Source of the DNA: Mayamaea pseudoterrestris
Lineage: Eukaryota
NCBI GenBank assembly: GCA_027923505.1
Contig: BROI01000006.1
Location: forward strand, 1-64,000
Reading direction: 5' to 3'
Length of the DNA stretch: 64,000 nucleotides
Below the pieces are notes generated by a model that saw only the letters and a list, made by a program, of their open reading frames with translations, was not told where the DNA came from and ran no database searches. The position numbers and the translations under genes are program-made. Positions 6,727 to 18,834 of the stretch are shown here, piece after piece; positions within the stretch are counted from its first letter, which is position 1; each line of letters begins with the position of its first letter.

Positions 6727-7900
6727 ATGATGACGGAACAATCCTATATTGCCTCCGTTGTGGCCACCTACTGGTTCGTGTCGATTAGCATGGTCTACTT
6801 GAACAAGGCATTAATGAGTAGTGACGAAATATCTCTACCAGCTCCACTCTTTGTCACGTGGTTTCAGTGCGTTGTCACGGCATGGATTTGCTGGTTGGCC
6901 GGACGGTTTGCTCAAAGCATGAAGGCGCGAGAGTACGACGCACTGGCCAAGTCGGGCGATGAAAGCGAATCGAATCGAAAACCATCCTTTTGGGCGCAAT
7001 TTCCAAAGGCAGAGTATCGCGTCGGCACTGGACGTAAAGTCTTTCCGCTCAGTTTGATCTTTGTCGGAATGATTACCTTCAACAACCTTTGCCTCAAATG
7101 GGTCGAAGTCTCATTCTACAATGTCGCAAGATCCTTGACGATTGTCTTCAATGTCATTTTCACGCAAGCTCTTTTGGGAACCAGAACATCATTTAGCGTC
7201 ATGATGTGTCTTATGATTGTCATTTTGGGTTTCTTCATGGGAAGCAAGGGCGAGCTCAACTTTTCGCTTTGGGGAACCATTTCGGGAGTGCTTTCGTCCC
7301 TCTTTGTTTCGCTCAATTCAATCTACACGAAAAAGGTTTTGCCAGTTGTCGAGAACGATCACTGGAAGCTGACTTACTACAATAACATCAATGCCTGCAT
7401 TCTGTTCATTCCGCTCATGCTCATTTTCGAGCACGATGCAATCTTGGCTGGCTTTACCAAGCAGTTTATGAGTCCAATCTTTTGGTCGGCCATGGCAGTC
7501 GCTGGAGTGTTTGGTTTCTCCATTGGTATGTACTGTATATAGTAGGAATGGCCGATTTAAAGGGAATGAATGAACTTCGCATTCCGCTCGTCTCACACCG
7601 CCGTTCGTCAAATCCATTTACAACTTTTCAGGAATCGTCACGGTGCTACAAATCAAGGCGACGAGTCCACTGACGCATAACATTAGTGGAACAGCCAAGG
7701 CTGGCGTTCAGTCCATCATGGCCTTTTACATTTGGAAGAATCAGCCAACCTTTTTGGGTGTTGTCAGTATATTTGTCGTGCTGGGAGGGTCGCTGGCGTA
7801 CACACTAGTAAAAATGGCGGAAGGCAAGTCTGCGGCGCAAGCTTTACACAAGAGCGACTCTCACGATTTGGAAGCGGGAGAAAACAAGTCGTCCAAGTAG
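6727..7900 (+). CDS. SLC35C1: GDP-fucose transporter (SLC35C1-like), 2 exons: 6727-7525, 7632-7900
   Basis: YWFVSISMVYLNK, APLFVTWFQC, MITFNNLCLKWVEVSFYNVARSLT; removing the GT-AG intron gives SIGIVTVLQIKATSPLTHNISGTAK; multiple TM segments. Confidence 0.9.
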
Positions 7901-9504: not shown

Positions 9505-12440
9505 TGTTGCATACCTGCTATGGTAGCGTCCCTATCGAGAGATCTGGACTGAGGCTGCTGGTTCGAGTTGCGATCGAATCAAGCGAAGAAGAAGCAAGGA
9601 ACCGGACTATAATGCTCTTCGGCCGTACCTCGGATGGGTCCCGACTGAGCGCGTTCAACAGACTTTACGTCACACGGAAGCATGGTATCATCTCAGCGCA
9701 CACCCGCGATTACCATTTCGACACCTCACGAAATCACGATTTCCGGCCGCGAACGTTCAGCGGTTGCGCGAACTATTCGCCACGGACACGATACACTCTG
9801 ACACGCCAGCTTTGGATGATGGAATTCTAGGGCATGGGGGAGCTACTAAGATGCAGCTCTTTGTTGGACGAGAAAGTTTTTACACGCGCGGCTACCCGAT
9901 GAAGTCGGAGAGCGAAATGTCAAACGCGTTAGAGGATTTTATCCGCGAAGTGGGCGCTCCTAACGGACTGCTCAGCGACAATGCCAAGTCGGAGACTGGC
10001 AAGGCTGTGAGGGATCTCTGTCGGATGTACAATATTCCTCAAGTGACCACAGAACCGGGTCATCCAGAACAAAATCCATGCGAACGTCACACCCCATTAA
10101 GCCAATGATGGAGAACCTCCAACGAGATTCGGGTTCGCCAGGCCATTGCTGGGTTTTGCTGATTAAATTCGTAATCATGATACTGAACGTCCTCGCGACG
10201 AAATCGCTGGGATGGCGCACGCCAACGGAAGTTGCGTTCGGAAATCTGCCGGATATTTCGCCTTTGTTACATTTCAAGTGGTGGGAACCGGTCACGTTTG
10301 AGGCGCAGGGGAGCTTTCCCTCGGCGGTACGATCTGGCAACGGCCGATTCGTGGGCATCGCAGAGAATAGCGGTCCGCACATGACTTTTCTCGTTCTGAC
10401 GGACGACACGCTTCAGGCGATTCCGCGCTCCAACGTGGTCTCGCGCAGCTACTTGTTACCACGAGAGTTGCCTTCCTTCCCTGAGTCTGGAGGGGAGATT
10501 TCTGAAGAAGCTACACGCGCAAGCGAGCGAAATTTTGAAACTCCAGATCTCGCGACAGGACGCTACCATAGCACGCATGTGACAGAAAGTAGTCACGACA
10601 ACTACGGCGGAAACGACGACGAACACTTCCGATGGCGAACCACGCCAACGTACCAGCGAAGTTCTTCAGAAGGGCTGAGCAAGAATCAGGGAATAAATGC
10701 CCTCTGTTCTCTCCAAGCGAACTCATCGGACGACGTTCGTAAGGGAACACGAAACGGTCAGAAAATGCGAGCGACTGTATGCGAATATATCGAAGTACGC
10801 GATAACGAGCTACTCGAAACGACGAAAGGTTTCCTAATCCAAATGGGAGAGGAGCCAGCGAAAGACTTAATAAGTTACAACGAACTGTCGGATTTAATCG
10901 AACGACAGATGGACGAAGATATACGAAACGATCCGGCGACTCAGTGGGTATTCACGAAGGAATCGGACACGAGCTTAATTTGAAACCGAACGATCCGACA
11001 TACAAAGGAAGTTCAAGTAACGTTCTCGCCGAATGGACTGACGGAACGACGACGTGGGAGCCTCTCGCGATCATGAAGAAGGACGATCCGATAACGATCG
11101 CAGAGTATGGACTCCAAGCACGGCTTACTCGACAAGCCAGGATGGAAGCAGCTGGAGCATTACACTGGAAGCGAAAGAAGTTTCGACAGATGGTAACAGC
11201 GGCGAAACGAAAATCGAAAGCAAACGGCGTACGCTACAAATTCGGCGTAAGGTTGCCGCGCAATTATAAAGATGCGAAAGCTCTCGACGAGATCAACGGC
11301 AACACGCTGTGGACGGATGCGATTCGAACGGAATTAAATCAGATAAATGATTACGACACGCTCGCAGATCGGAGTCGGTAAGGTTATGCCGGGCGCCGTG
11401 GAAACGAATAAACGTGCACACGATCGATATCGAGCCACGACGTGCGACGGAAAGCACGACTCGTTGCAGGAGGACATATGACAGAGCCGCCGAAGGATTC
11501 AGTTTACTCGGGCGTTGTGTCATTGCGAAGTCTACGAATGGTAGCGATGTTAGCGGAACTCAACGGTCTGGAACTGTGGGCAGCTGACGTCGGCAACGCA
11601 TACTTGGAAGCGAAACGAAAGAGAAGGTTTATATCGTGGCAGGTCCGGAGTTCGGGGAGCTCGAGGGTCACACGCTCACGATCGTGAAGGCATTATACGG
11701 TCTTCGCACGTCAGGCGCACGCTGGCACGAGCACTTTGCAGACACGCTCCGCGACATTGGCTTCATGCCGTGTATCGCAGAACCGGACGTGTGGATGCGC
11801 GATAAAGGCACGCACTACGAATACGTTTGTGTGTATGTCGACGATTTAGCGATAGCGATGAAGAATCCGAAGGAACTAACGGATCTTTTAATTGAGAACT
11901 ACAACTACAAGTTGAAGGGCGTCGGTCCATTGGCATATCATTTGGGCGCAGACGTTTGGCGAGACGACGACGGCGTACTCTGCTTCGGAGCGAAGAAGTA
12001 CGTCACAAGACTACTAGCGAACTACAAAGAAATGTTCGGCGAGGAACCGCGACCGCAGACAAGTCCACTACGCGACGGCGATCATCCGGAACTCGACGAA
12101 ACGAAAGAACTTGACGACGACGGAATTGCGAAGTATCAATCGATAATTGGTGCGTTGCAATGGGCAGTAAGTTTATGTCGATTCGACATTCACTGTGCTG
12201 TCATGACTATGGGGAGATTCCGAGCTGCGCCACGAGCGGGGCACTTGGAACGGTTGAAGCATATTTGCGGATACTTACGAAGATACCCGGATGGAGCGAT
12301 TCGATTCAACGTTTCGATTCCAACGGACGAGCGATACGCGACAGTTGACAAGATGGATTGGGTACTTACTTGATTGCATTACCGGTTATTGGTGATCTAT
12401 AAAGAGAGTAGGTAAATGCTGTTGCTGTGCTTCGTTGCAA
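9505..12440 (+). mobile_element. Decayed Ty1/Copia LTR retrotransposon fragment, CoDi-like (integrase, chromodomain-like segment, RT); gag/protease and RNase H not seen
   Basis: Integrase ATDT...GAPNGLLSDNAKSE...TEPGHPEQNPCER (~9764-10100); VLAEWTDGTTTWEPL (~11020-11070); RT KARLVAGGH, AADVGNAYL, KALYGLRTSGARW, VYVDDL; INT precedes RT as in Copia; many frameshifts; ends approximate. Confidence 0.9.
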
Positions 12441-12889: not shown

Positions 12890-15800
12890 ATGTTGACAAG
12901 CAATTTGAACGCAACGCGCTTTGCGCAAAAGCCGCTCCACCAGCCAATCTACTCGTTCAGCAGCGTCCCCAAGGCGAGCGCTGATTTGTCACACTCGTCG
13001 CTTCAATATGTCGACTCTCGCGACGACTTTCACCGCAGCATGGGCGAAATGCTGCTGCTTTGCAAGGAGGCGATTCGACGAAGACCCGACAAGAAGGGGC
13101 CCGGTGGAAGCAAGCCATTGTCGCTCGAGTATTTGGCCGATCGATTCGACATTGATGACCCATTGTTTGGTTACTTGGTTCGAACGAAAGAGGAACCGCC
13201 GGCCAAGATGAGAAGCGGAAACGATAACAGTGATTGGCGCAAGGGCATGCTGCAAGGATTTATTACAGTAACGACGTTTACCAATTATCAAAAGTCGTTT
13301 CGATGGGACTCGCTTCATTCGGCGGCCTTTTCGTACGATGACGATGAATTAATGCAGGAGCGGATGAATGGAGAGCGCAAGCTTGACGAGGATGGGAGCC
13401 TTGCGGCTGCCATGCAGGCGACGGTTCGCTGCGGAGATATTTGGAATGAAGGCATTGTTTGGCCTCGCATTGCGGAAATTTCACTCCTTGGAGGATTGGG
13501 ATGTGGAGCGACACTTGTTAAATTAGTCATTGAACATTTGGAGTGCATGCGAGCAACTGGCAAGGCCAATTATGATTTCGTCATTTTACAAGCGACGGAT
13601 AATTCCATTTCTTTTTACGAAAGTATGGGGTTTGTCCGAGTTGGCGCCATTGTCAAGGAGGAGAATGTAAATAAATCGGACTCGTCGGATGATGAGGATG
13701 CAATTGCAGAACCTCTGCCAATGGATTCGCCGGAGAAGGCTAACGCCGTGGCGCAAACGGCGGACATTGTCACGAGCCCATTGACGCAATACACTACGAA
13801 AAAGGCTGGAGAGACTCCTAATGATATCGCGAAACGATTCAGCGTTGATGTTTGGGACATTGTATTTCTGAACAAGGATATTTTCGCAGGCATTTGTCCG
13901 ACTAGCCGTTTGCTGCCTGGTACGAATTTGTATGTTCCTGTATACGAGAAGATCGAGCTACCGACAAAACAGAAGTCACGAGATGCCGAGCCACCTGCCC
14001 TGCCTCAATACTACATTGCAGATGAAGACGACACACCACGAGAAATTGCCAAGAAATTTAATGTCTCATGCGCCATGCTCGTGGAAGCAAACAAGGGACG
14101 TTTGGAAGGCCTCGTTTCAAGCTCTCGACTCATGGCAGGTACGCGCGTGAAAGTGTCGCACCTTGATGTCCCGGAGGACGATTTTAAGCCGTACCCGCAC
14201 TGGTCTTTTCCCGACGATACTTTTGACGATCCTGAACCATCGTACATGATGGCGCTCAAGCTCAATCGCAAGCGCGGCATAAGTACGCGTGAACGGCCTG
14301 TTCTTGAAAGTCTTGCCGTTCCAATCTCCAAATACGAACCAACCGAGCTGGTACTGCCACCGTCACCTGGTCCAATCGATTACGATATTACTCATCCTAA
14401 ATCCCTTGCGGACATTCGATCGCCAGCTCAGAACAAGGTTAAGCTGAAAAAGAATAAACGCATTAGTGTTATTCCAGGCGCCCCTGTACCTCCCAAGCGC
14501 GAACCGGGTGCATTTTTGCTCTTTGCGAATGACGTTCGTGTGGAGCGTGGCCAAGAAGTCATGGGCTTGTCGGGATCTGCGGCCAATGGTTATTTTGCCA
14601 AAGCGTGGAAGCAATTGTCAGCCGAGGATAAGGCCCCCTACGAAGCCAAGGCAAACACATTGCGCGAAAAGTACTTTCGAGACAAGGCGCTGTATGAAAA
14701 GAAGCTTGCCGCTTTTCTGCTCGATAACCCAGAGTATGAAGCGACTGCAGGTGTCACTGCGCCATTGAAAGTAGCTGCAACGTCTTCTTCAACCGCCGCA
14801 TTCACTGAAACAAACAATGGCATGTCGCTTTACAACAAAGTTGTTCGTCTCAGACCTGGAGCTATGACGGAAGGGTCTGAGTTTACCTATTGGTATGTCC
14901 TGACGTACATTCCTGATCTCAAGTGGTGCCATTTGGCGCCGATGAAGGCTTGCGGCAATTTTGGAGACGATAAGCCAAAGTCGAGAGGACGAACTAAGTA
15001 CCGCCTCGTCGATGAGAAACTGGGTAAGGAAGTCGATATAAGTAGTTCGTTTTGCATACCCATCAAGGCTCGAGCAATGAAAAAGACTCTTGACGCCGAC
15101 ATGGAAGAGTGGGACGTTGTCGATGATGGGTCTGAGCCTGACATGGAGGTCAATCAACCTCGGGTGAGCAATTCAGCAATTCGTAATTCATCGAGGCCAT
15201 TGCGAACTAGTCCGGTAAAACCTTCGGCCGTACCTAAACCACCAACTGGTCTCAAACGCAAAATTCCACAAGCGAGTGCCGGCGATTCATGCCTGAGACT
15301 ACCCACCATGATGGCACTCTTGCCCGAGGGCGAATCCGAGGTAGTTGTACGCCTTGTTGGAAAAGAAATTTACTATCCGACTGCCATTTATCCATCAAGT
15401 ACTGCGAATCTTGGTCATCAAAATGAATCTAATAGTTCAAAAAAGAGAAAACGCTTGTCGAACGGTCAAGACGAAGTTATTGTCGAGATAGTCGTTACGA
15501 AGGCTAAACGAGGCGGTCGGACAAAAGGATCAAAGAACAAACCCAAAAATATTGAAGTTGCGCCAGCGCCTGTCGAAGTTAACGACGTGGCCATTACCAA
15601 TATTACCAGTCCACTGACAAGAAGTAGAGGACAGGAGCAGGAGCCGGCAAGTAAACGAGTACGACTCTCGTCGCCTCAAACATCACGACCGTCGCGCATC
15701 GAAAAAGAGCACAAGGAAAATTCAAAACTTGCTGGGCAGATAGATTCTTCTAAAACTTCCCATGTGCAGCCGCATTCACTCGATTTTGCCGCTGCTAGAA

Positions 15801-16213
15801 GGAGCAGTCCTAGAGGATCGTCGAGCCATGTCAAGACGGCGTCCATAACCACACAACTCGTTACGACGTCCAGTCCGAGGCGACTTCCAAGGGGTACGGT
15901 TGGACCGTCTCACAAGCGTACTCGACATTGCATGTCTTCGCCATCGCCCACGATTGAGAAGCGAACTCTTCGAAGCTCTGCTCCAAGCCCTATGATCGAC
16001 CCGACACCGCCTTCGACGAGAAGGCGACAATCGCCGAGGCTAAACATAACATCGGCGGTGCGTCGTTCCATTACCACGATACGCGAAAAATATGCGCAAA
16101 AGCATCAGCAAACCGAGCTAGTTAATAACGCTCGGCCAAAGAGAAAGGCTGCTCCCGAATTTTTGGGCGAGGACACTGTCGGCGCGCATGAAAAACGTCG
16201 CCGCATTGATTAA
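12890..16213 (+). CDS. Multidomain protein: GNAT-like acetyltransferase, 2 LysM, HMG-box, conserved-looking unknown domain, basic disordered tail
   Basis: 1107-aa ORF; GNAT motifs AEISLLGGLGCGATLV and LQATDNSISFYESMGF; LysM-like YTTKKAGETPNDIAKRFSV..LN..LLPGTNLYVP and YIADEDDTPREIAKKFNV..AN..LMAGTRVKV; HMG PKREPGAFLLFAND..AWKQLSAEDKAPYE. Confidence 0.8.
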   Translation: MLTSNLNATRFAQKPLHQPIYSFSSVPKASADLSHSSLQYVDSRDDFHRSMGEMLLLCKEAIRRRPDKKGPGGSKPLSLEYLADRFDIDDPLFGYLVRTKEEPPAKMRSGNDNSDWRKGMLQGFITVTTFTNYQKSFRWDSLHSAAFSYDDDELMQERMNGERKLDEDGSLAAAMQATVRCGDIWNEGIVWPRIAEISLLGGLGCGATLVKLVIEHLECMRATGKANYDFVILQATDNSISFYESMGFVRVGAIVKEENVNKSDSSDDEDAIAEPLPMDSPEKANAVAQTADIVTSPLTQYTTKKAGETPNDIAKRFSVDVWDIVFLNKDIFAGICPTSRLLPGTNLYVPVYEKIELPTKQKSRDAEPPALPQYYIADEDDTPREIAKKFNVSCAMLVEANKGRLEGLVSSSRLMAGTRVKVSHLDVPEDDFKPYPHWSFPDDTFDDPEPSYMMALKLNRKRGISTRERPVLESLAVPISKYEPTELVLPPSPGPIDYDITHPKSLADIRSPAQNKVKLKKNKRISVIPGAPVPPKREPGAFLLFANDVRVERGQEVMGLSGSAANGYFAKAWKQLSAEDKAPYEAKANTLREKYFRDKALYEKKLAAFLLDNPEYEATAGVTAPLKVAATSSSTAAFTETNNGMSLYNKVVRLRPGAMTEGSEFTYWYVLTYIPDLKWCHLAPMKACGNFGDDKPKSRGRTKYRLVDEKLGKEVDISSSFCIPIKARAMKKTLDADMEEWDVVDDGSEPDMEVNQPRVSNSAIRNSSRPLRTSPVKPSAVPKPPTGLKRKIPQASAGDSCLRLPTMMALLPEGESEVVVRLVGKEIYYPTAIYPSSTANLGHQNESNSSKKRKRLSNGQDEVIVEIVVTKAKRGGRTKGSKNKPKNIEVAPAPVEVNDVAITNITSPLTRSRGQEQEPASKRVRLSSPQTSRPSRIEKEHKENSKLAGQIDSSKTSHVQPHSLDFAAARRSSPRGSSSHVKTASITTQLVTTSSPRRLPRGTVGPSHKRTRHCMSSPSPTIEKRTLRSSAPSPMIDPTPPSTRRRQSPRLNITSAVRRSITTIREKYAQKHQQTELVNNARPKRKAAPEFLGEDTVGAHEKRRRID

Positions 16214-16336: not shown

Positions 16337-17173
16337 TTATTGACCATTCGCAGCCGCTAACTTTTCAGCCAACTCAGTGAGCAAACGCAACACCAACTTC
16401 TTGCTCAGACCCATGACGCTGTCTTCTGTTCCATCGATACGTTCAATGTATTGCTTGACGAGTTTGTGCTCCACCATGAGACCGCCCGCGCAGCTCAGTA
16501 TGGGAGCATCTTCCTCAAGCAACCTGTCCACCAATCCGTCGTTCGGTTCGTTTTTAAAGTATATGGTCGCCGTGTCGACACCAGCTACTGTCAATTTGCT
16601 CGGCAGATGCATCAGCACGACGGATCCAACGGTACTGGGTGGATGTTTTGAGTACATGGCCACCATTGTCTTGGCCTCGTCCACCGTCTCTGGCTTTTCA
16701 AGTATTTTGCCGTTGCAAGTGACAACTTGATCGCCCGTCAAGATGATGTATTCGTTTTGCGACGGAAGGTCATTGTCGCATCGGCCGGCTTGTATTTCGC
16801 TCACCAAGTGATCCATTTTCGCTTGGGCAAGATGTAGGACCAAGTCACTTGGCTTGTCAGTGTCACGGTTGCCCAAGCTCCGTTCGTTGATTGGTCGCAC
16901 CAATATATGATAGTTGACTCCCATTTCCTTTAGTATGAGCTTTCTGGTGAATGACGCCGACCCGAGGATGAGAGGTGACGGCAGATGGAGCTGCACCAGT
17001 GGATCATTGACGAGTGCAGTAGCAGGAGGAGCCTGAGACATGCTGCTGCTGAAGGAGGCGGAATGACGGGTCCTTACAAAATGCAACCGCTGTACAAAGC
17101 TACCTGATCGGGAAGCAAGACAGAAACAAGTCAGTAGAGTGTACGTTGAGCCTGCTGCGACGCCAAGTACCAT
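16337..17173 (-). CDS. Maf-family nucleoside triphosphate pyrophosphatase with N-terminal targeting extension
   Basis: LILGSASFTRKLIL, TGDQVV..GKILEKP, AGGLMVE, IDGTEDSVMGL. Confidence 0.85.
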   Translation of the reverse strand: MVLGVAAGSTYTLLTCFCLASRSGSFVQRLHFVRTRHSASFSSSMSQAPPATALVNDPLVQLHLPSPLILGSASFTRKLILKEMGVNYHILVRPINERSLGNRDTDKPSDLVLHLAQAKMDHLVSEIQAGRCDNDLPSQNEYIILTGDQVVTCNGKILEKPETVDEAKTMVAMYSKHPPSTVGSVVLMHLPSKLTVAGVDTATIYFKNEPNDGLVDRLLEEDAPILSCAGGLMVEHKLVKQYIERIDGTEDSVMGLSKKLVLRLLTELAEKLAAANGQ

Positions 17174-17625: not shown

Positions 17626-18834
17626 TTACGCTACCTTTTTCATCAAAGGCGCATCACTGCGTGCGCTTTCTGTAGGAGCAGCAGCAGCCACCGGCACCAG
17701 GGCCGCCAGCTCCTTTTGCAGCTCCAGCAAGCCAGCGTTTGCCTTGAGCCCGGGCTTGCTGGCGCGGGCACTGAGCAGCATGACGGGCAGTCGACTCGTT
17801 TCGCGCACCAAGCGTTCCGCCAGTTGCTCCTTCACTTGCAACACCCGGCGCGCCAAGTCAGTTTGCTCCATCAAGTCGCACTTTGTCAGGACGAGTTGAA
17901 TTGGCGGTAGTGAGCTTTTCGCTGTCTTATCGTCACTGCTCTGATTACTAGTCTGTACTTGCTGCTGCAGCAGCTCCAAAAAATCGAAATCGGCCTGCTT
18001 CATGCCATGCCGCGCATCAATGAGCAGTAACAGTCGCTTCAAGGGAGCGCCCCGACGTAGCAAGTAGTGCGACATGGTTGCTTGGTAGTTGGTGGCTGCT
18101 TCCGGCGACGCGTAGGCAAAGCCATAGCCAGGCAAGTCCACGAGCCGCAGCAAGCGCGTGGGCCGTGATCGAGACGCCAGCTGGTAAATGGTAATGGCGC
18201 GGGTTTCTCCCGGTTTGGATGACACAGTGGCCTTGTGACCCTTGGGGAGCTTGTTGGTTTCGACAGACGATCGACGGCGGCTATGCGCCTGCTCTTGCTC
18301 CTCGCGACTTTTATACAGTAAATTGTTGAGTAGCGTCGACTTTCCAACGTTGGATCGACCAGCCAAGGCAATCTCCGGAACGACGGCGCGACCATCGCTT
18401 CGCTTGCTGGAGCTCACCGACTGAATGTCTTCGACCGAGCTCATATTTGCAATGATTGACACTGGCTGACTCTCGGCGCCAAAGGGAGGTGGTGCGCGCA
18501 GTAACGATGGATTTGGCTCGCTGACAGTTGCGTCAATACTGCTGCTGCCGACTCGTTGATGTTGCTGCTGAGGTCGCCCCTTGTCGAGTGTTCTCCGTCG
18601 CAACGGTCTGCGTCGTGACGGAACGCCAACTCCAATCGATTGTATATGTCTCAGTATTTTAGGATCGACTGGAATGTTTCTGAATTGCTGCCGAACACTC
18701 TCCGTGGCGCCGATTTCGTTGCTGGGCGTCGTTGCTCCTTCCAAAGAAGAAAGCAGCCGTCGGCTTGCGACGAGCCAAGTTGCTGACTGGAATGTAACCA
18801 TGTAGCGGTGGCTACGCAGAGTACATTGTAACAT
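17626..18834 (-). CDS. EngB/YihA/YsxC-family GTPase, probably organellar
   Basis: EIALAGRSNVGKSTLLN (G1), PGET (G2), DLPGYG (G3), LIDARH, TKCD (G4); Arg/Ser-rich N-terminus. Confidence 0.9.
   Translation of the reverse strand: MLQCTLRSHRYMVTFQSATWLVASRRLLSSLEGATTPSNEIGATESVRQQFRNIPVDPKILRHIQSIGVGVPSRRRPLRRRTLDKGRPQQQHQRVGSSSIDATVSEPNPSLLRAPPPFGAESQPVSIIANMSSVEDIQSVSSSKRSDGRAVVPEIALAGRSNVGKSTLLNNLLYKSREEQEQAHSRRRSSVETNKLPKGHKATVSSKPGETRAITIYQLASRSRPTRLLRLVDLPGYGFAYASPEAATNYQATMSHYLLRRGAPLKRLLLLIDARHGMKQADFDFLELLQQQVQTSNQSSDDKTAKSSLPPIQLVLTKCDLMEQTDLARRVLQVKEQLAERLVRETSRLPVMLLSARASKPGLKANAGLLELQKELAALVPVAAAAPTESARSDAPLMKKVA

Follow-up and report, generated by a model that had tools for sequence, protein, structure and literature searches.

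A LysM pair nested in a GNAT fold: a probable chromatin acyltransferase from the diatom Mayamaea pseudoterrestris

The gene and its product

The stretch of DNA analyzed here, referred to as the window, covers positions 1 to 64,000 of contig BROI01000006.1 in the Mayamaea pseudoterrestris assembly GCA_027923505.1. It contains an intact forward-strand open reading frame (ORF; 12890..16213) which starts with ATG, has no internal stop and encodes 1107 amino acids plus the stop codon. The predicted product, the window protein, combines a GNAT-type acyltransferase core, two LysM domains, an HMG box, an SH3-like barrel and a long basic tail (Table 1). An initial annotation made from the letters alone had already placed a GNAT domain, two LysM domains and an HMG box in one intact ORF. 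This is confirmed by the ORF itself, by Pfam, and by AlphaFold2 (AF2) modelling with Foldseek, and the element coordinates given at that time agree with the measured ones within about 30 nt. The domain list was right for these parts, but it missed the SH3-like barrel at residues 642-745, which is the best-conserved C-terminal element.

Table 1. Coordinates of the window protein gene, its parts and the neighboring genes (positions in the window; residues in the window protein).
Feature	Position	Strand	Evidence or remark
Whole ORF	12890..16213	+	Single exon spanning all conserved blocks; colinear with homologues
GNAT fold strands beta1-beta6 (residues 31-261)	12980..13672	+	AF2 secondary structure, Foldseek and VIA matches, invariant columns
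LysM 1 (residues 292-351), beta-alpha-alpha-beta	13763..13942	+	Pfam LysM 19.9 bits scanned singly; model pLDDT 92-98 over 291-350
LysM 2 (residues 372-424)	14003..14161	+	Pfam LysM 22.2 bits scanned singly, above the 20.9 cut-off; model, Foldseek
Returning GNAT segment (residues 429-462), PYPHWSFPDD...EPSYMMALKL	14174..14275	+	Carries the last core strand, beta7 (452-457)
Basic cluster KVKLKKNKR (residues 516-524), putatively like a nuclear localization signal (NLS)	14435..14461	+	Basic-cluster scan
HMG box (residues 531-606), HMGB/NHP6-like	14480..14707	+	Pfam PF00505, PDB sequence matches
Conserved all-beta SH3-like barrel (residues 642-745)	14813..15124	+	AF2 pLDDT 83.5
Basic Ser/Thr/Pro-rich tail (residues 746-1107)	15125..16210	+	Isoelectric point (pI) 10.9; poorly conserved in alignment
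KKRKR	15440-15454	+	Basic motif in tail
Degenerate AT-hook KRGGRTKGSKNK (residues 873-884)	15506-15541	+	In tail
RPKRKA	16133-16150	+	Basic motif in tail
KRRRID, C-terminal	16193-16210	+	Basic motif in tail
Triose-phosphate-transporter (TPT) family protein	6727-7542	+	E 1.5e-23; neighbor, unrelated
Maf-like protein	16337-17173	-	E 1.2e-31; neighbor, unrelated
GTPase, MMR_HSR1 type	17626-18834	-	E 6.6e-14; neighbor, unrelated

A word-seeded search with residues 1-720 found 217 homologues at E<=1e-3 out of 7998 scored candidates, which speaks against a chance ORF, and some of the colinear homologues are sequences from transcriptome collections (MMETSP entries). The locus itself is covered by contigs of four sequencing runs from one study. 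These runs look like genomic DNA, as depth in run X1 stays close to 40 across genes and spacers alike, and therefore say nothing on expression. The contigs of the other runs show 30 listed differences within the ORF, 24 at the third codon position and 22 synonymous when taken singly, and this bias points to purifying selection on the ORF frame. In runs X2 and X4 the gene is present in a diverged form, from another allele or strain, at window positions 13102-15019, and the differences are concentrated at 14140-14389. In codon 456 (beta7 block), the neighboring changes at 14255 and 14256 would jointly give Tyr, the same residue as in P0002, the closest homologue (70% identity).

The GNAT core and the nested LysM pair

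The N-terminal part of the protein was modelled with AF2 (residues 1-470) using a 75-sequence alignment (A2), which gave a predicted local distance difference test score (pLDDT) of 85.9 and a predicted template modelling score (pTM) of 0.82. All elements of a GNAT fold are found in order in this model: beta1 (36-41), alpha1 (44-63), alpha2 (79-88), beta2 (93-99), beta3 (121-132), beta4 (188-202), alpha3 (206-218), beta5 (230-235), alpha4 (240-244), beta6 (253-256) and beta7 (452-457). A helical insert (144-176) lies between beta3 and beta4, and both LysM domains and a short strand (432-434) lie between beta6 and beta7. The conserved N-terminus is part of the GNAT domain, with pLDDT 82-96 from residue 11.

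Comparison of the model with the Protein Data Bank (PDB) supports the fold assignment. In Foldseek, Naa60 (5icw) was matched at E 3.3e-4 with a template modelling score of 0.55 on the target, and matches to Naa60, AANAT and Gcn5 span 3e-4 to 2.5e-3. The structural comparison with VIA gave RimI (2cnm) at Z 10.8, with a root-mean-square deviation (rmsd) of 3.5 over 140 of 151 residues aligned, followed by Ard1 (4pv6, Z 10.6), AAC(2')-Ia (10.4), Naa60 (5icw), Naa30 and PaiA (each 10.0), and the glucosamine N-acetyltransferase 5kf1 (9.7). Z reached 8 or more in 368 of 999 re-aligned chains, and the 50 listed were all GNAT-type acyltransferases by title. Both the GNAT and the LysM folds, on which the initial annotation depended, were recovered in the AF2 model of residues 1-470 and by Foldseek, the GNAT fold also by VIA.

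The best structural neighbors include RimI, Ard1/Naa10, Naa30, Naa50 and Naa60, i.e., N-terminal acetyltransferases (NATs). However, their sequence identity to the window protein is just 15-21%, they have no inserted domains or DNA-binding parts, and they are tied with unrelated GNATs, as RimI, Ard1, Naa30 and Naa60 (Z 10.0-10.8) are level with AAC(2')-Ia and others. As the best neighbors lie within one Z unit, the GNAT subfamily cannot be told from structure. A profile search of PDB sequences with the 75-sequence alignment gave no GNAT placement, with only HMG boxes among the best 60 of 93 matches. In the atlas search, residues 1-470 scored 0.88 to a haptophyte cluster with Chromo and LysM domains, a relationship which was then confirmed by sequence. 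An IDM1_C cluster (atlas score 0.76 with the same residues) was not confirmed, and the window protein has no PF23209 match in the Pfam scan.

The catalytic region is strongly conserved. The pyrophosphate-binding loop of GNATs follows beta4 and has the motif Q/R-x-x-G-x-G/A. In the window protein the coenzyme A (CoA) loop is L199-L-G201-G-L-G204-C-G206 (LLGGLGCG), and the GxG glycines are kept, with G206 invariant and G204 present in at least 90% of the 75 sequences. The same GNAT segment holds beta4 with E196 and helix alpha4 with F242-Y243 (QATDNSISFYESMGF). Residues E196, G201, G206, Q234, A235, T236, S239, F242, Y243, G247 and F248 are invariant in the 75 sequences, and the CoA-loop glycines, E196, Q234-A235-T236 and F242-Y243 are also kept in an 8-sequence alignment across subfamilies. 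In the returning segment, Y435, H437, W438, P441, S451, Y452 and M454 are invariant in both the 28- and the 75-sequence alignments.

Pfam LysM (PF01476) matches two stretches of the whole protein with 28.9 bits against a cut-off of 20.9, and both units are modelled as beta-alpha-alpha-beta with pLDDT of about 90-98. According to the model, the pair is an insertion in the GNAT fold, placed between beta6 and beta7. This placement is supported by the VIA alignments, in which whole GNAT chains align across model residues ~35 to ~460, i.e., on both sides of the LysM pair. It is also supported by relatives without LysM, which go from beta6 straight into the beta7 block; in P0309 and P0314 the block GYRHW...PSxMMAxKL comes directly after GFVRVGAV (alignment A5). 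The domains were originally read as a string of separate parts, a description that has to be revised since the LysM pair sits inside the GNAT fold.

Most characterized LysM proteins are extracellular. Foldseek matched the pair to tandem LysM structures at E 1.8e-4 to 8.5e-3, and the best of these are chitin or peptidoglycan binders, namely 4uz2 (E 1.8e-4), CHIP13 with chitooctaose and Ecp6 with four N-acetylglucosamine (GlcNAc) units (GlcNAc4). The LysM signature residues D323, F326, N328, the T382/P383 turn, N401, L414 and T418 are conserved throughout the family. The tandem beta-alpha-alpha-beta fold is thus shared with extracellular LysM proteins such as the Thermus thermophilus NlpC/P60 protein (4uz2), Lotus CHIP13, Ecp6 and CEBiP. 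However, those are secreted or membrane-anchored glycan binders, while the pair in the window protein is nested in an intracellular enzyme fold, and the mutual orientation of the two LysM domains differs (rmsd ~14 A over the pair).

LysM domains do occur inside eukaryotic cells, as in OXR1/NCOA7. PMC11289520 describes further examples in animals, LMD-2 and LYSMD1/2, which lack a secretion signal and act with a protein partner, a subunit of a guanine nucleotide exchange factor (GEF) in the case of LMD-2. By this precedent, the ligand of the nested pair may be a protein; it may also be a glycan, as first proposed. The likeness lies in the LysM fold, as LMD-2 and LYSMD1/2 have a single LysM and neither an enzyme domain nor chromatin domains.

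No description of a GNAT with nested LysM, or of this family, was found in the open-access literature searched (supplements aside), which agrees with the initial statement that no characterized protein has this architecture. The passages searched in PMC5112689, on oomycete histone acetyltransferases (HATs), do not mention LysM. Two other papers were set aside: the match in PMC3061080 was to 'LysMe3', and the LysM domains in PMC5499826 are bacterial and extracellular.

C-terminal domains, family and genomic surroundings

The HMG box scores well above the Pfam cut-off (residues 535-602, E 4.7e-10, 40.2 against 25.4 bits). Among PDB sequences it is closest to HMGB2 and to box B of HMGB1 (6e-10 to 5e-9), compared with 6e-5 or weaker for SOX proteins. 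The tail, i.e., the C-terminal 362 residues, consists of 31% Ser, Thr and Pro, and no Pfam family matched it (746-1107). Several NLS-like basic clusters had been noted earlier, and six are present in the protein. An AT-hook core reads R-G-R-P with basic flanks. The AT-hook-like element reported in the tail turned out to be degenerate, as KRGGRTKGSKNK has GGRT in place of the core (K-R-G-G-R-T-K at 873-879). P0002 has KKRGRPKGSKN at the aligned place and RGRP is found in many relatives, so that, judged by this alignment, the AT-hook is decayed in the window copy. In line with the first description, the window protein has no signal peptide; neither a hydrophobic N-terminus nor a transmembrane segment was found in it, and the highest Kyte-Doolittle mean over 19 residues (1.59) is located within the GNAT core.

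The barrel that follows the HMG box is among the best-conserved regions of the family, with 16 residues invariant in 28 sequences (Y667, L671, T672, P675, D676, L677, W679, H681, L682, P684, R701, E714, D716, A736, E739 and W741). Of these, Y667, W679, H681 and W741 would be candidates for an aromatic cage that binds methyl-lysine or arginine. It has no Pfam match at E<=1 and nothing at E<=1e-3 in Foldseek against the PDB, where the best E is 4.4e-2. The weak Foldseek matches that remained were to ribosomal uL24/eL27 and CcdB/MazF. In a VIA comparison covering 48,161 chains, the barrel resembles Spt5 KOW6-7 (Z 6.8, 57 residues aligned, rmsd 2.3), NusG KOW (6.2), the SMN Tudor domain (5.8), the MRG15 chromo domain and Sgf29 Tudor (both 5.6) and a PWWP domain (5.5). 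As these Z values fall in the range of common arrangements, we classify residues 642-745 as a predicted SH3-like barrel of the KOW/Tudor/chromo kind, with no finer class. An atlas search with the barrel reached a best score of 0.77, under lead level.

The family is large. A phmmer search with residues 1-470 against 1.84 billion representatives gave 775 matches at E<=1e-3, of which 542 reach E<=1e-10 and 218 reach E<=1e-30. The named sequences among the 217 homologues of the residues 1-720 search are all from diatoms and include Seminavis, Amphora, Nitzschia, Pseudo-nitzschia, Cylindrotheca, Epithemia, Skeletonema, Thalassiosira, Cyclotella and Odontella. Their names are only of the types "hypothetical", "LysM domain containing", "HMG box domain-containing" and "predicted GNAT family N-acyltransferase". 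Haptophyte members (311 matches with shorter proteins; 167 with the Prymnesium protein P0208 as query) were found in Prymnesium parvum, Chrysotila carterae, Chrysochromulina tobinii and C. parva. The UniRef name "Histone acetyltransferase" on a Prymnesium entry is presumed to be automatic and was not taken as evidence.

Cluster look-ups added the chytrid Batrachochytrium salamandrivorans (P0393), Bigelowiella natans (P0379) and the green alga Cymbomonas tetramitiformis (P0442), the last being a relative without LysM. P0393 has GNAT, LysM, LysM, beta7, HMG and barrel in the same order as the window protein. Two aligned stretches of these proteins show 34% identity (476 aa, E 3e-51) and 33% identity (270 aa, E 6e-29). 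The architecture thus extends beyond diatoms and is no oddity of that group.

The architecture was scanned with our own hidden Markov models from alignment A1 in the 314 proteins fetched first. The order GNAT-LysM-LysM-beta7-HMG-barrel was found in 115 of them and the same order without HMG (haptophyte type) in 24, the rest being mostly fragments. The position of the LysM pair divides the family into three types, shown residue by residue in alignment A5. Of the 465 proteins fetched, 245 have a near-complete GNAT together with a beta7 block; near-identical cluster members are counted in this set, and some of the gene models may be wrong. The LysM pair lies between beta6 and beta7 in 187 of the 245 (type A) and within the beta3-beta4 region, with beta7 directly after beta6, in 27 (type B), and 31 show no LysM (type C).

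A quick maximum-likelihood tree of 120 rows was made from 18 named sequences, all sequences of types B and C and 45 random type A sequences, with 125 of type A left out. Support was measured by the Shimodaira-Hasegawa-like approximate likelihood-ratio test (SH-aLRT). The tree contains a diatom clade (40 rows, SH-aLRT 99), a haptophyte type-A clade (12 rows, 99), a type-B clade (26 rows, 94) and a type-C clade (20 rows, 100). Within the diatom clade, Seminavis, Amphora and Epithemia share a 9-row subclade (98) with the window protein. The three types require two changes on the tree, which is the minimum possible, compared with a mean of 48.2 after shuffling (0 of 200 shuffles as low). Batrachochytrium and Bigelowiella are on long branches without resolved placement, and we therefore make no call between vertical descent and transfer.

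The haptophyte-type proteins P0283, P0290, P0293, P0289, P0299 and P0421 form a sister subfamily with the LysM pair in the beta3-beta4 region plus a chromodomain. The barrel was matched at E<1e-3 in four of these six type-B relatives (P0289, P0290, P0293 and P0299). The environmental sequences P0304, P0308, P0309, P0313, P0314 and their relatives have GNAT, beta7, barrel and long N-terminal extensions, and no LysM. This subfamily indicates that GNAT and barrel are the constant core of the family and that the core enzyme does not need the LysM pair.

Two further relatives deviate in their gene models. In P0379 (2178 aa) the beta6 region (end 283) and the LysM pair (start 1764) are separated by about 1,480 residues with four HMG-box matches among them, and the beta7 block is at 1980-2007. 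This is either an extreme insertion in the same loop or a wrong gene model. The C-terminus of P0208 has the first and last barrel motifs (LFNRV... and ...ADEEEWDI) and lacks the middle, which looks like a splice error in the gene model rather than a real loss.

Relatives carry a variety of chromatin and DNA domains on the same GNAT module. Bromodomains were found in P0228, P0241, P0252 and P0271, and also in P0362, P0381 and P0388; chromodomains in P0283, P0290, P0293, P0289, P0299 and P0312; PHD fingers in P0078; and GATA plus PHD in P0442 from Cymbomonas. At E<=1e-4, 34 of 49 further long representatives have at least one DNA or chromatin Pfam domain (HMG in 28, bromodomain in three, chromo in two, and PHD, Myb and GATA in one each), 11 matched no family, and four matched GNAT or LysM alone. 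No extracellular or membrane domain family turned up in the Pfam scans of relatives.

Upstream of the gene, the window contains a high-copy repeat at 10000-12362, where X1 depth is ~1500-2900 compared with ~40 on neighboring single-copy genes. Loose contig ends are found at 12362 in all four runs, and the ORF at 11765-12373 has a sub-threshold match to a copia-type reverse transcriptase (RVT_2, E 4.5e-5, 23.6 against a cut-off of 31.6 bits). Based on the depth, the loose ends and the RVT_2 match, we regard this region as a retrotransposon remnant, which ends about 530 bp upstream of the ATG. The neighbors of the gene (the RVT_2 fragment, Maf, GTPase and TPT transporter) played no part in the functional inference.

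Proposed function and its alternatives

We propose that the gene product is probably a nuclear GNAT acyl-CoA transferase tethered to chromatin, a member of an undescribed eukaryotic family. Attachment to DNA would come from the HMG box together with the basic tail and what is left of the AT-hook, and the KOW/Tudor/chromo-like barrel could bind a partner protein, a histone tail or nucleic acid. Histones or other proteins of chromatin would be modified by the GNAT core with acetyl or another short acyl group, E196 (beta4) and Y243 (alpha4) being a putative base/acid pair by analogy with Gcn5- and SSAT-type GNATs. In N-terminal acetyltransferases the beta6-beta7 loop lines the peptide/acceptor site. 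Hung from this loop, the LysM pair would help to choose the acceptor or control its access, or it would bind a partner or a regulatory ligand. The fusion of the same GNAT module to bromodomain, chromodomain, PHD, Myb, GATA and HMG in relatives supports a chromatin-bound acetyltransferase. The nuclear chromatin acetyltransferase suggested at the outset thus gains support as an idea, with its localization still inferred. Furthermore, the presence of the LysM pair in two different loops of the same fold, in separate subfamilies, suggests a real functional coupling to the enzyme.

HATs with a Royal-family barrel or a DNA-binding domain are known, e.g., the MYST proteins Esa1 and MOF with a chromo-barrel and yeast Spt10 with a GNAT plus zinc finger. 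Like Gcn5/PCAF, the window protein would join a GNAT fold to chromatin readers, and Gcn5 structures (1m1d, 8h66, 5trl) match it in Foldseek at E 2.5e-3 to 4.4e-3. Some relatives of the window protein also carry a C-terminal bromodomain, as listed above. However, the window protein itself has none at E<=10 in Pfam and no significant sequence match to Gcn5. It has instead a LysM pair in the fold, and an HMG box and SH3-like barrel where Gcn5 has its bromodomain. Esa1/MOF, Sgf29 of SAGA and Spt10 are alike in that an acyltransferase is combined with a small beta-barrel reader and/or a DNA-binding module, but the barrel of the window protein matches Royal-family barrels at the generic SH3-like level, without a sequence relationship. 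By analogy, the window protein would act in the manner of Gcn5 (bromodomain) or a MYST enzyme (chromo-barrel), as a HAT tethered through a reader. It is not considered a member of those families, since it has no bromodomain and no specific sequence or structural kinship past the GNAT superfamily.

Several observations weigh against this interpretation. The window protein is under the Pfam cut-offs for GNAT (Acetyltransf_10 at 202-258, 16.3 against 23.6 bits; Acetyltransf_7, 12.8 against 27 bits), and an invariant Gly occupies the first position of the Q/RxxGxG/A motif. The structural neighbors are tied and include small-molecule enzymes such as AAC(2')-Ia and the glucosamine N-acetyltransferase, which makes a protein substrate an inference. 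The barrel Z values of 5.6-6.8 are in the range that VIA counts as common arrangements, and part of the family lacks the HMG box (P0022, P0026, haptophyte type). Nuclear localization is deduced from the domains and basic clusters, and the proposed position of the LysM pair beside the acceptor site is taken from the NAT loop rather than from model coordinates. Finally, none of the four runs covering the gene is an RNA run.

An unlikely reading is that the protein is a glycan-sensing chromatin regulator, in which the LysM pair binds nuclear GlcNAc ligands (chito-oligomers, peptidoglycan fragments or O-GlcNAc-type marks) and thereby targets or switches the acetyltransferase. The canonical folds of both LysM domains, their best structural matches to chitin or peptidoglycan binders, the family-wide signature residues and the two separate insertion sites are all consistent with it. 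However, the conserved LysM residues have a structural role as well, related subfamilies do without the pair (31 of the 245 near-complete members, near-identical cluster members counted), and LysM is not known to bind a single O-GlcNAc. In addition, the intracellular proteins LMD-2 and LYSMD1/2 act with a protein partner (PMC11289520). Stated more broadly, and with the same low expectation, the nested pair would be a nuclear sensor of an N-acetylated ligand beside the acceptor site, coupling amino-sugar or cell-wall status to chromatin acylation; the ligand may be a chito-oligosaccharide, a muropeptide, an O-GlcNAc-type mark or even acetyl-lysine. If this were true, the sensor module would be old enough to be common to a chytrid fungus, a chlorarachniophyte, haptophytes and diatoms.

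Rather unlikely as well is a small-molecule N-acetyltransferase parked on chromatin, which would acetylate an amino sugar, polyamine or similar amine while the LysM pair holds a sugar substrate. AAC(2')-Ia, 5kf1 and PaiA are indeed among the tied best structural matches, and LysM domains by the acceptor loop would fit a GlcN/GlcNAc-type substrate. However, N-terminal and lysine acetyltransferases score equal or better, and the accessory domains of the family (bromo, chromo, PHD, HMG) read histones or DNA, as is usual for domains joined to enzymes that modify proteins.

The sub-threshold Pfam scores and the Gly in place of the canonical Q/R of motif A might instead indicate a catalytically dead scaffold, i.e., a GNAT-LysM structural or binding module in an architectural chromatin factor that acts through its HMG box, barrel and tail. 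We consider this quite improbable, as the invariance of the catalytic region in the 75 diatom sequences, kept across subfamilies, argues against a dead enzyme, and relatives pass the Pfam GNAT cut-off (P0390 with 34.3, P0276 with 31.7, P0274 with 26.6, P0364 with 26.3 and P0304 with 24.6 bits). A secreted or cell-wall LysM protein with a spurious HMG match, conceivable in view of the extracellular nature of most characterized LysM proteins, is highly implausible given the missing signal peptide and transmembrane segment, a conserved N-terminus that folds into GNAT, an HMG box above the Pfam cut-off with HMGB structures at 6e-10, and accessory domains of nuclear types throughout the relatives.

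The chromatin-tethered acyltransferase proposed here defines a sizeable unnamed eukaryotic family of probable chromatin acyltransferases with a wide but patchy distribution, which is missing from the diatom and stramenopile HAT inventories searched. Among the cases we found, it is the clearest one in which LysM domains form part of an intracellular enzyme fold, and it provides a handle on intracellular LysM function. A further addition is the conserved beta-barrel domain that accompanies this GNAT and has no Pfam family. For the epigenetics of diatoms and haptophytes, the family represents a candidate lineage-enriched writer enzyme.

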